Origin: a virus
Direction: 5' to 3' (one strand)
Virus genome (UHGV): UHGV-1639218
DNA: 22,738 nt
Below the pieces are notes generated by a model. It was not told the origin of the DNA. It made no database searches and saw only the letters and a list, made by a program, of their open reading frames with translations. The position numbers and the translations under genes are program-made. Below are positions 5,430-5,877 of the stretch, one piece after another. Positions within the stretch are counted from its first letter, which is position 1. The number at the start of each line of letters is the position of its first letter.

Positions 5430-5612
5430 ATGGCGAAGTATAAACGAATTCTGTTGAGGTTGACTATGAAAAATGGCCTTGAACTGAAAGCGCCTGTAAC
5501 TGATGACATCAGCAGAGCACTGGCTTTTGCCATTAAGTGGGTGGCGGTCGGTGTTGCTGTGTCCCCGATGCTGTATGGGCTGGCAAAACTGGTCATTGCG
5601 TTGAAATCGTGA
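5430..5612 (+). CDS. Small single-TM peptide A1 (60 aa; alternative start at 5466 gives 48 aa)
   Basis: ATG at 5430 preceded by GGGAG; alternative ATG at 5466 preceded by GAGG. Translation ..TDDISRALAFAIKWVAVGVAVSPMLYGLAKLVIALKS contains one TM helix. Its 3' 116 bp is duplicated at 5761-5877. Confidence 0.45.
   Translation: MAKYKRILLRLTMKNGLELKAPVTDDISRALAFAIKWVAVGVAVSPMLYGLAKLVIALKS
5497..5612 (+). repeat. Direct repeat copy 1 (about 116 bp, about 93% identical to copy 2)
   Basis: GTAACTGATGACATCAGCAGAGC...GAAATCGTGA aligned by eye with 5761-5877. Confidence 0.85.
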
Positions 5613-5626
5613 AGGGAGGATTAAGC

Positions 5627-5758
5627 ATGTCAGACAAACTCATAACGCTGGCGAAGATCCTCTGTGTAATTGTCGGCATTTCATTTTCACTAATGCTGGT
5701 TGCTCTTTTTCTGTCCCTCGCCTGGGTGATGTTGTCTTCGTCGGGGCTGCTGGGGTGA
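5627..5758 (+). CDS. Small single-TM peptide B1 (43 aa)
   Basis: Strong RBS AAGGGAGGA 7 nt upstream of ATG 5627. Translation MSDKLITLAKILCVIVGISFSLMLVALFLSLAWVMLSSSGLLG is almost entirely hydrophobic. Confidence 0.45.
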   Translation: MSDKLITLAKILCVIVGISFSLMLVALFLSLAWVMLSSSGLLG

Positions 5759-5877
5759 CAGTGACTGATGACATCAGCAGAGCGCTGGCTTTTGCTATTA
5801 AGTGGGTGGCTGTTGGTATTGCTGTGTCTCCGATGCTGTATGGGCTGGCAAAACTGGTCATTGCGCTGAAATCGTGA
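5755..5877 (+). CDS. Small single-TM peptide A2 (40 aa, paralog of A1), GTG start coupled to the B1 stop
   Basis: GTG 5755-5757 overlaps the B1 stop TGA 5756-5758 (GTGA), with GGGG 8 nt upstream. Translation (M)TVTDDISRALAFAIKWVAVGIAVSPMLYGLAKLVIALKS. Differs from A1 by 8 nt, 7 of them synonymous. Confidence 0.35.
   Translation: MTVTDDISRALAFAIKWVAVGIAVSPMLYGLAKLVIALKS
5761..5877 (+). repeat. Direct repeat copy 2
   Basis: GTGACTGATGACATCAGCAGAGC...GAAATCGTGA; 8 mismatches against copy 1. Confidence 0.85.

Follow-up and report, generated by a model that had tools for sequence, protein, structure and literature searches.

The 22,738-nucleotide stretch analyzed here (the window) is one strand of the virus genome UHGV-1639218, and it is the late region of a lambdoid prophage with its lysis cassette. 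Reading 5' to 3', a Q-like gene is followed by an STnc100 RNA, a SASA/nanS-type esterase gene, genes for a holin, a YdfR protein, and a lysozyme, four small open reading frames (ORFs), and the spanin pair Rz/Rz1; an HNH endonuclease gene, terminase, and head genes lie downstream of Rz/Rz1. Our subject is the four small ORFs, here called A1, B, A2, and C, and above all the near-identity of A1 and A2. An earlier note on this DNA had taken the silent nature of the differences between these copies as a sign that both are translated and under purifying selection. What history does the pair record; did one gene duplicate in place, or did two genes meet? We trace the array to recombination between two types of cassette. 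The features on which the argument turns, with their neighbors, are as follows.

4125-4340, plus strand: holin of the phage 21 S (pinholin) family (Pfam PF04971 Phage_holin_2_1, expect value (E) 9e-33)
4345-4689, plus strand: YdfR/DUF1327 protein (Pfam PF07041, E 2e-45; annotated as YdfR-family in related genomes)
4740-5273, plus strand: lysozyme with an E-x8-D-x5-T motif (Pfam PF00959, E 1e-23)
5364-5396, no strand assigned: GC-rich hairpin flanked by an A-run and a T-run, resembling a bidirectional terminator (terminator scan, inverted repeat)
5430-5612, plus strand: A1, a 60-aa full-length peptide (PHROG 1115), with an alternative internal ATG at 5466 that would give 48 aa
5496-5613, plus strand: repeat copy 1, the A core, 38 codons and stop
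5627-5758, plus strand: B, a 43-aa hydrophobic peptide (PHROG 4906, E 2e-22), the recombination substrate
5679-5713, plus strand: crossover interval within B, placed from the B haplotype table and exact-match counts
5755-5877, plus strand: A2, the copy truncated at its N-terminus, of 40 aa if begun at GTG 5755 and of 38 aa if begun at GTG 5761
5761-5878, plus strand: repeat copy 2 of the same 118-nt direct repeat
5889-5975, plus strand: C, a 28-aa peptide, an N-truncated member of the "...RWW" branch (PHROG 4493, E 4e-6)
5977-6471, plus strand: Rz i-spanin (Pfam PF03245, E 2e-49; PHROG 13)
6197-6382, plus strand: Rz1 o-spanin lipoprotein, embedded in Rz (Pfam PF06085, E 2e-21)

From its Gly/Ala-rich N-terminus, read directly, we infer that the lysozyme is of the signal-arrest-release (SAR) type. 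Annotated E. coli prophages have the identical layout, with the small ORFs named only "hypothetical protein". The Qin prophage of K-12 shares the essQ-ydfR-rrrQ layout without the peptide array, so K-12 offers no named homologue.

Silent differences between two copies of a peptide gene

The copies form a direct repeat of 118 nt (5496-5613 and 5761-5878) with 93% identity; the earlier note had recognized this repeat but began its first copy at 5497, a trivial off-by-one slip, the correct register being 5496/5761. Over the 38 shared codons there are eight differences (5498, 5519, 5531, 5546, 5549, 5553, 5564, and 5601), and a recount in the ORF frame agrees with what had been reported: seven are synonymous (GTA/GTG, GCA/GCG, GCC/GCT, GCG/GCT, GTC/GTT, TCC/TCT, and TTG/CTG), and the sole amino-acid difference is Val/Ile (GTT/ATT). 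In the remaining two plus-strand frames the same comparison gives three synonymous and five non-synonymous differences, and zero and eight. The ratio of non-synonymous to synonymous divergence (dN/dS) between the copies, a check that the earlier note had proposed, is 0.044 by the Nei-Gojobori method (dS = 0.274, dN = 0.012; S = 30.5 and N = 83.5 sites for the pair), and the probability of at least seven synonymous changes in eight, with the same mix of transitions and transversions, is 0.002 by simulation and 0.0006 by a binomial test. The silent bias between the copies is correct and non-random.

The view that the repeat is coding sequence under purifying selection, neither noncoding nor decaying, is likewise borne out: across the related loci, every full-length copy of the A core keeps its frame intact (183 of 183). 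The E. coli-type alleles differ by 19 mutations, 14 synonymous and 5 non-synonymous (P 3e-5 to 5e-4), and comparison of A with its Salmonella homologues gives dN/dS of 0.06-0.15 at dS of about 1. Disrupted alleles do occur in the protein collection (a frameshifted 45-aa form in 33 contigs, a stop-loss form, and B::A2 fusions), and they are a small minority. Because dS to Salmonella is about 1, polarization of the eight differences with that outgroup is unreliable, and only the first site is reasonably clear (GTA ancestral, GTG derived in A2). For B and C, site-wise mutation counts are uninformative, as frameshifted alleles and small numbers confound them. Elsewhere near the copies, a 12-nt repeat, TATAAACGAATT, at 5109 and 5439 is compatible with chance.

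A recombinant array joined within B

We collected 179 related loci and mapped their arrays, using a degenerate DNA pattern for the search with the 28-aa C. The arrays found, in which X denotes a further small gene that stands where the window has A1, were distributed as follows.

X-B-A2-C-Rz: 90 of 179 loci
A-B-Rz: 79 of 179 loci
A-C-Rz: 4 of 179 loci
A1-B-A2-C-Rz: 4 records, namely the window, L042, and L035/L147 (the latter two being one contig)

The window is a mosaic of these classes. Base for base, its A1 is the commonest allele of the A-B cassette (56 loci) and its A2 the commonest allele of B-A2-C (76 loci). The flanks tell the same story: positions 5401-5678 are identical in 22 A-B loci and in no X-B-A2-C locus, while 5714-6100 match 24 X-B-A2-C loci exactly and none of the A-B loci. 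Coming from the left, identity is perfect as far as 5712, and coming from the right, as far as 5678; the junction span 5660-5730 is unique to the window among the compared loci. The B haplotype of the window is itself chimeric, with A-B-class sequence in its 5' part giving way to X-B-A2-C-class sequence in its 3' part. Because the window is a mosaic with its crossover in B, A1 and A2 are to be seen as the commonest alleles of two cassette types. The remaining A-B-A2-C loci have a later crossover, at 5728-5759, and a B mosaic of the reciprocal type is found in an X-B-A2-C prophage (L154) that is co-resident in the genome of L035. The full array occurs in 0 of 5,426 complete E. coli genomes, of which roughly 1,800 gave matches (best coverage 82-86%), and is absent from 50,697 phage records; the B-A2-C segment, by itself, is in 581 complete E. 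coli genomes. Intermediate alleles are also on record: a full-length allele of the L062 type stands four changes from A1 and four from A2, the full-length single A of O157-type A-B loci has the "A2" base at four of the eight sites, and the A-C allele is chimeric, made by a single crossover between an L062-type allele and A2. As for B, its first 26 residues are highly conserved and its last third is hypervariable between cassette types; the gene is also the site of cassette recombination.

One cassette type consists of [hairpin + full-length A]-B-Rz and the other of [hairpin + X]-B-[N-truncated A2]-[N-truncated C]-Rz. By homologous recombination in the shared B gene (5679-5713), the left-hand part of the former was fused to the right-hand part of the latter, giving A1-B-A2-C-Rz. 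The recombinant origin of this array is shown by the comparisons above. In the fuller reading, to which we give a probability of about three in four, A1 and A2 are two versions of one peptide gene that diverged in separate phages and were then joined by recombination. Neither A1 nor A2 has been substituted since the joining, which makes the array young. It is a rare, young recombinant, and the mechanism is ordinary for lambdoid phages.

Could the pair instead have arisen by tandem duplication of A in place, both copies being translated and selected and only silent changes accumulating between them? Such a history would suit the 7:1 ratio, the intact frames of both copies, and the in-frame GTG of A2 that overlaps the stop codon of B, and it is what the earlier note implied when it treated the eight differences as having accumulated between copies kept together. 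That part of its account is not supported. Each copy is a pre-existing allele, common in single-copy cassettes; the flanks are an exact mosaic with the crossover in B, which already contradicts duplication at the locus; and half of the eight "A2" bases are present in the O157-type single A. A synonymous bias among substitutions since the joining has nothing to act on, there being no substitution private to the array, itself missing from all the complete genomes searched. Moreover, at least two independent crossover points have made such arrays. We therefore regard duplication in place as very unlikely. Two considerations count against our own reading. The IMG/VR loci in the collection come mostly from closely related E. 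coli prophages, so the locus counts above are not independent samples. The direction of the event is also not fully polarized; in principle, the duplicated array could be ancestral and the A-C forms deletion derivatives, an alternative disfavored by the rarity of the array, its exact identity to both parental classes, and the independent crossover points.

A separate rival concerns the strand. The selected product might be encoded opposite the A genes, in ORFs 5216-5596(-) and 5640-5861(-), whose wobble positions are shared with the A frame. This antisense frame, missed in the earlier note, gives five synonymous and two non-synonymous differences between A1 and A2 (dN/dS 0.11), a family-wide ratio of non-synonymous to synonymous polymorphism (pN/pS) of 0.27, and stops in 0 of 22 haplotypes. 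Since it too looks constrained, dN/dS is unable to decide the strand, which we judged instead by codon-position pattern and context. The sense frame does score better both times (0.044 for the pair and 0.19 for the family). Segregating sites at sense codon positions 1, 2, and 3 number 15, 6, and 32 (position 2 versus 1, P 0.04), and the least variable position is thus sense position 2, the wrong way round for an antisense product. In addition, the antisense ORFs run into unrelated sequence (one into the hairpin and the end of the lysozyme gene, the other into antisense B), whereas the sense ORF lies in the direction of the whole late operon, starts from an ATG with a Shine-Dalgarno (SD) sequence, and ends in a conserved stop at the repeat boundary. 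The openness of the antisense frame is expected from composition, as stops there require Tyr, His, or Gln in the sense frame and the core has only one such residue (Y49). An antisense product seems to us scarcely credible.

With recombination between cassettes as the preferred reading, the silent bias takes on a different meaning. It is a measure of the divergence of alleles from different phage lineages, not of array-mates: the A peptide was under purifying selection while its alleles diverged in separate phages, and the 7:1 bias records this. On whether both copies are selected or translated here the bias is silent, because no evolution has taken place in the joined state.

Possible translation of A2 and the hairpin-peptide family

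If the silent bias does not speak to the use of A2, what does? A2 is without the 22-residue N-terminal segment, the leader, the hairpin, and the strong SD sequence that are found in full-length members. Its GTG at 5755, as the earlier note had it, is in frame and overlaps the stop codon of B (5756-5758). In 94 of 94 copies from B-A2 loci the A2 frame is intact and the start context, GTGACAGTG, identical, with an invariant GGGGTGACAGTG context and a conserved GTG. The branch that leads from the nearest full-length allele to A2 has four synonymous and no non-synonymous changes (P 0.005-0.014). The first of the "synonymous" sites, moreover, reads GTA in 87 of 87 full-length genes and GTG in 94 of 94 A2 copies, and this change creates a start codon precisely at the truncation point of A2. 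The predicted energies of pairing between SD and anti-SD sequences are listed here.

A1 (ATG 5430): -8.4 kcal/mol
A1, internal ATG 5466: -6.3 kcal/mol
B (ATG 5627): -11.3 kcal/mol, the strongest in the cassette
A2 (GTG 5755): -5.0 kcal/mol, mediocre
A2 (GTG 5761): -6.0 kcal/mol, mediocre
C (ATG 5889): +0.3 kcal/mol, no SD sequence
Rz (ATG 5977): -6.2 kcal/mol
Window background, mean: -3.4 kcal/mol

The stop of B overlaps GTG 5755, the stop of A2 lies 11 nt from the ATG of C, and the stop of C lies 1 nt from the ATG of Rz; together with the energies, these spacings suggest a coupled chain from B through A2 and C to Rz. To be translated at all, A2 would need coupling to B; for its translation in the native B-A2-C context the evidence is indirect but favorable. 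The competing view is that A2 is an untranslated, N-truncated remnant, carried passively between B and C and clean through recent descent from a functional allele. The missing upstream parts fit this view, as do candidate GTG starts whose SD energies fall within the background range and the disagreement of gene callers over the start (40-, 51-, 71-, and 90-aa versions); variation within the class is so slight (two synonymous, one non-synonymous) that a test on it has little power. Against it stand the uniform frames and start contexts, the presence of the segment in hundreds of complete genomes, the wholly synonymous branch with its new GTG at the truncation, and the position of C, which, without an SD sequence and 11 nt past the A2 stop, would need ribosomes finishing A2. 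On balance we think a remnant unlikely, although this is the alternative we would discount least.

The A2 frame, -1 with respect to that of B, is also open across all of B (5614-5877). B::A2 fusion proteins occur naturally, through one extra T in the T5 run at 5706-5710, and four loci read the C-terminal tail of B in the frame of A2. A programmed -1 frameshift from B into A2 at this T5 run was considered and rejected as the main route, though it keeps some small probability: the heptamer lacks the form of a canonical slippery site, and the extra T in the DNA explains the fusions.

For A1, the ATG at 5430 and the in-frame ATG at 5466 would yield products of 60 and 48 aa that differ by four basic residues, K3, K5, R6, and R10. 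The gap between the hairpin and A1 is too short to hold a promoter, so transcription must come from upstream. In the scheme we propose, only a Q-modified (Q-antiterminated) late transcript would read efficiently through the hairpin upstream of A1, and this requirement would confine expression of the peptides to the lytic cycle. A1 and B would then use their own strong ribosome-binding sites, with A2, C, and Rz translated by coupling. Each product would be a single long hydrophobic helix inserted in the inner membrane, to which full-length members would add a cationic N-terminal helix. The AlphaFold model of A1 has a cationic helix (2-15), a linker, and a long helix (22-59; predicted local distance difference test (pLDDT) score ~90); A2 corresponds to the long helix alone. 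Hydropathy (grand average of hydropathy, GRAVY) is 0.66-1.77, with one hydrophobic helix per peptide.

Which family do these peptides form? A1 and A2 match phrog_1115 (2.6e-42 and 6.4e-25), and C matches phrog_4493 weakly (3.8e-6); A1 and A2 also match PHROG 3246 and 4493, X corresponds to PHROG 6632 (3e-13), and all these PHROGs lack a functional annotation. Both A1 and A2 have the core motif A-x-AFAIKWVAVG...SP-x-LYG-x-AKL-x-IALKS, with 19 columns invariant across Escherichia and Salmonella members. The full-length N-terminal segment, (K/R)Y(K/R)RILLRLTMKNGLE-x-x-AP, together with the upstream hairpin and the SD leader, is present for A1 and absent for A2 and C, both of which begin just past that segment. 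Distant full-length relatives end in ...ALKS or ...VLK (A-like) or in ...RWW (C-like), and an A/C hybrid protein exists; C is for these reasons another N-truncated member. X shares the N-terminal pattern of A (FSKLIRELRLM versus YKRILLRLTM) and resembles a peptide of L193, a metagenome contig; despite its separate PHROG it is probably a member as well. X-B-A2-C is accordingly one full-length member, B, and two N-truncated members, and the window has A1 in place of X.

Family members occur only in lambdoid prophages of Escherichia and Salmonella, all of them hypothetical proteins, in up to nine places per genome; among 1.84 billion representative proteins, an exhaustive search with the profile yielded only 20 clusters. 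Pfam and NCBIfam hold no family for A, B, A2, C, or X (A, B, A2, and C searched at E up to 1), and PADLOC returned no hits for A, B, C, or X, hence no match to a defense-system component. A sequence search of solved structures gave noise only, a profile scan of genome contigs with the family alignment confirmed no match, and Rfam scans with both the gathering and a relaxed threshold turned up nothing relevant between 5200 and 6000.

The full-length unit is the same regardless of the upstream gene: an A-run, a GC hairpin, a T-run, some 30 nt, and a strong SD sequence. The genes found upstream of it include those for lysozyme, GH19/GH108 endolysins, antirepressor, tail-fiber assembly protein, SASA esterase, and major capsid protein. 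The hairpin is conserved upstream of A homologues in nine gene contexts, with compensatory changes at 4 of 14 stem pairs. Judged from these contexts, the hairpin belongs to the mobile peptide unit, not to the upstream gene. It stands at the equivalent position in L180-L194, L194 included, and precedes full-length members after seven kinds of gene. The stretch 5280-5428, which lies just after the lysozyme gene and takes in the hairpin, recurs with 80-90% conservation in over 200 phage records, most of them from Shiga-toxin phages; an antirepressor (Ant) gene follows it there, not the peptide genes. Within A1, the 5' coding stretch AAGTATAAACGAATTCTGTTGAGGTTGACTATGAAAAAYGGCC (5437-5478) is nearly invariant in DNA between Escherichia and Salmonella, whereas silent sites of the core drift freely. 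A promoter-like site on the minus strand (-10 TATACT, -35 TAGTCA) overlaps this 5' stretch.

Arrays and single members are found elsewhere too. At 2501-3403 of L193, five small genes, with ...RWW members and three hairpin copies, follow the major capsid gene, and successive small genes are each preceded by their own hairpin copy; this is a second, independent tandem array, elsewhere in the late operon. In Salmonella (L188-L190) a 48-aa member stands directly after the SASA esterase gene and before a DUF1353 gene, outside a lysis cassette; a hok/gef toxin gene follows it in L189 and L190, and a colicin/pyocin-like gene adjoins in L188. Farther from the peptides, positions 1031-1240 of the window, between the Q-like gene and the esterase gene, hold a full-length Rfam match to STnc100 (160 bits), and a 74-aa ORF at 6468-6692 overlaps the end of Rz; of the 291 positions in the PHROG 2571 profile this ORF matches only 100-172, and it looks like a fragment of a larger gene.

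Possible function and comparison with known systems

Could the full-length unit be a type I toxin-antitoxin-like locus? On this model, a cis-antisense small RNA, starting from a minus-strand promoter in the 5' coding region and ending at the bidirectional hairpin, would cover the toxin start, and A2 and C would be toxin cores freed from that control. Much about the unit is suggestive: the peptides are small, hydrophobic, multi-copy (up to the nine places noted), and in L193 tandem with a hairpin for each unit. The promoter-like site has its -35 at 5466-5461 and its -10 at 5442-5437, the -10 being invariant over nine Escherichia and Salmonella contexts, and the hairpin has T-runs on both strands; the predicted antisense RNA of ~80 nt would fold into a stem-loop and terminator (z = -2.9). 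Third-position variation is lower in codons 2-16 (0.53 versus 0.84, P 0.03), one Salmonella homologue adjoins a hok/gef gene, and hokW-sokW is an earlier example of a type I toxin promoting the release of a lambdoid phage (PMC8621323). Yet there is no Rfam match and no similarity to a known toxin family in Pfam or NCBIfam, and the unit has no plus-strand promoter of its own, only ~35 nt separating hairpin and start. The -35 is weak (4/6) and not conserved in L183, the -10 is unrecognizable in the distant L193, and the conserved DNA also encodes a conserved peptide segment. A systematic search for tandem type I toxins (Fozo 2010; PMC2887945) does not mention the locus, and neither does the hokW-sokW paper (PMC8621323). 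The toxin-like reading is possible but weak, and we consider it improbable.

We are more inclined, tentatively and at somewhat less than even odds, to regard the peptides as late-expressed, accessory membrane-active lysis factors, whose full-length and truncated forms may modulate each other or the timing of envelope disruption; the analogy is with holin/antiholin pairs and with P2 lysA. Several points tell against this. We infer the proposed function from position, hydrophobicity, and coupling; searches of Pfam, NCBIfam, and PADLOC gave no match to holin, antiholin, releasin, toxin, or defense families; and a literature search by protein accession and peptide strings gave nothing on these peptides. 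The family is, in addition, not strictly one of lysis-cassette genes, since members also follow capsid, tail-fiber, and esterase genes. A more elaborate version, which we think decidedly unlikely, would have a mobile hairpin-peptide module, silenced in lysogens by the terminator hairpin and possibly by a cis-antisense RNA, in which arrays of full-length and N-truncated paralogues (A, X, A2, and C), interacting in the manner of holin/antiholin or toxin/modulator pairs with separate genes, tune envelope disruption; if this were so, recombination among co-resident prophages would reshuffle lysis timing.

The lesson of the locus is in part a methodological one. A silent-site bias between adjacent copies proves a selected coding history somewhere, not the use of both copies in place; where phage genomes are mosaic, near-duplicates that lie side by side may be alleles that came from different phages. 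The analysis also delimits a narrow family of tiny, so far unstudied membrane peptides, whose genes adjoin spanin genes in hundreds of E. coli genomes and in Salmonella prophages. The family is uncharacterized and modestly interesting; its carriers include O157-type prophages, and should the peptides influence when lysis occurs, they would matter for the release of phage and, in Shiga-toxin phages, of toxin.

How does the locus compare with systems already known? With the type I toxin loci, such as hok/sok, hokW-sokW of prophage Sp5 (PMC8621323), and the tandem ldr/ibs loci (PMC2887945), it shares short, hydrophobic, multi-copy, prophage-borne genes that are sometimes in tandem, a structured RNA element by the translation start, and a minus-strand promoter-like site. 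It differs in having no homology, by Pfam and NCBIfam, to Hok/Gef, Ldr, Ibs, TisB, ShoB, Zor, or other toxins, an antisense RNA that is only predicted, and no promoter of its own. The releasin gp25 of phage Mu (DUF2730), which is needed to release a SAR endolysin, is a 99-aa protein anchored in the membrane at its N-terminus, with an acidic cytoplasmic domain of 73 aa (PMC9239132). It resembles the A genes in being a small late membrane-protein gene near a SAR-type endolysin gene and spanin genes. By contrast, the peptides of the window are 28-60 aa long with no soluble domain, the A peptides being nearly all one hydrophobic helix, and A homologues also accompany GH19/GH108 endolysins, which are not SAR lysozymes. 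An identity with the Mu-type releasin was considered and rejected on the Pfam search: gp25 is a 99-aa DUF2730 protein and DUF2730 is unmatched here, so these peptides are not Mu-type releasins. Membership in the PHROG profiles (1115, 4493, and 3246 for A, 4906 for B, and 6632 for X) names the peptides without explaining them.

Holin/antiholin pairs, such as lambda S105/S107 and phage 21 S68/S71, differ by a short charged N-terminal extension. A1 (60/48 aa) and A2 (38-40 aa) recall such pairs as small membrane proteins of the late lysis region that differ in a positive N-terminal segment. However, the two forms come from separate genes, not from dual starts, and show no relationship to a holin family in sequence or in Pfam; the cassette of the window already has a pinholin, and A members also occur outside lysis cassettes. 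In phage P2, lysA encodes a membrane protein, affects lysis timing, and has the endolysin gene K on one side and the spanin genes lysB/lysC on the other. The A family likewise encodes membrane proteins and lies between endolysin and spanin genes; P2 LysA is a larger protein with several membrane spans, unlike the A peptides. The remaining parallel is with the lambdoid phage genomes, in which mosaic recombination between prophages at shared genes is established. Here, too, two cassette types have swapped halves in a shared gene, B, with independent crossovers and a reciprocal-type product in genomes that carry prophages of both types; what sets this locus apart is that the exchange has put near-identical paralogues into one operon, mimicking a tandem duplication.

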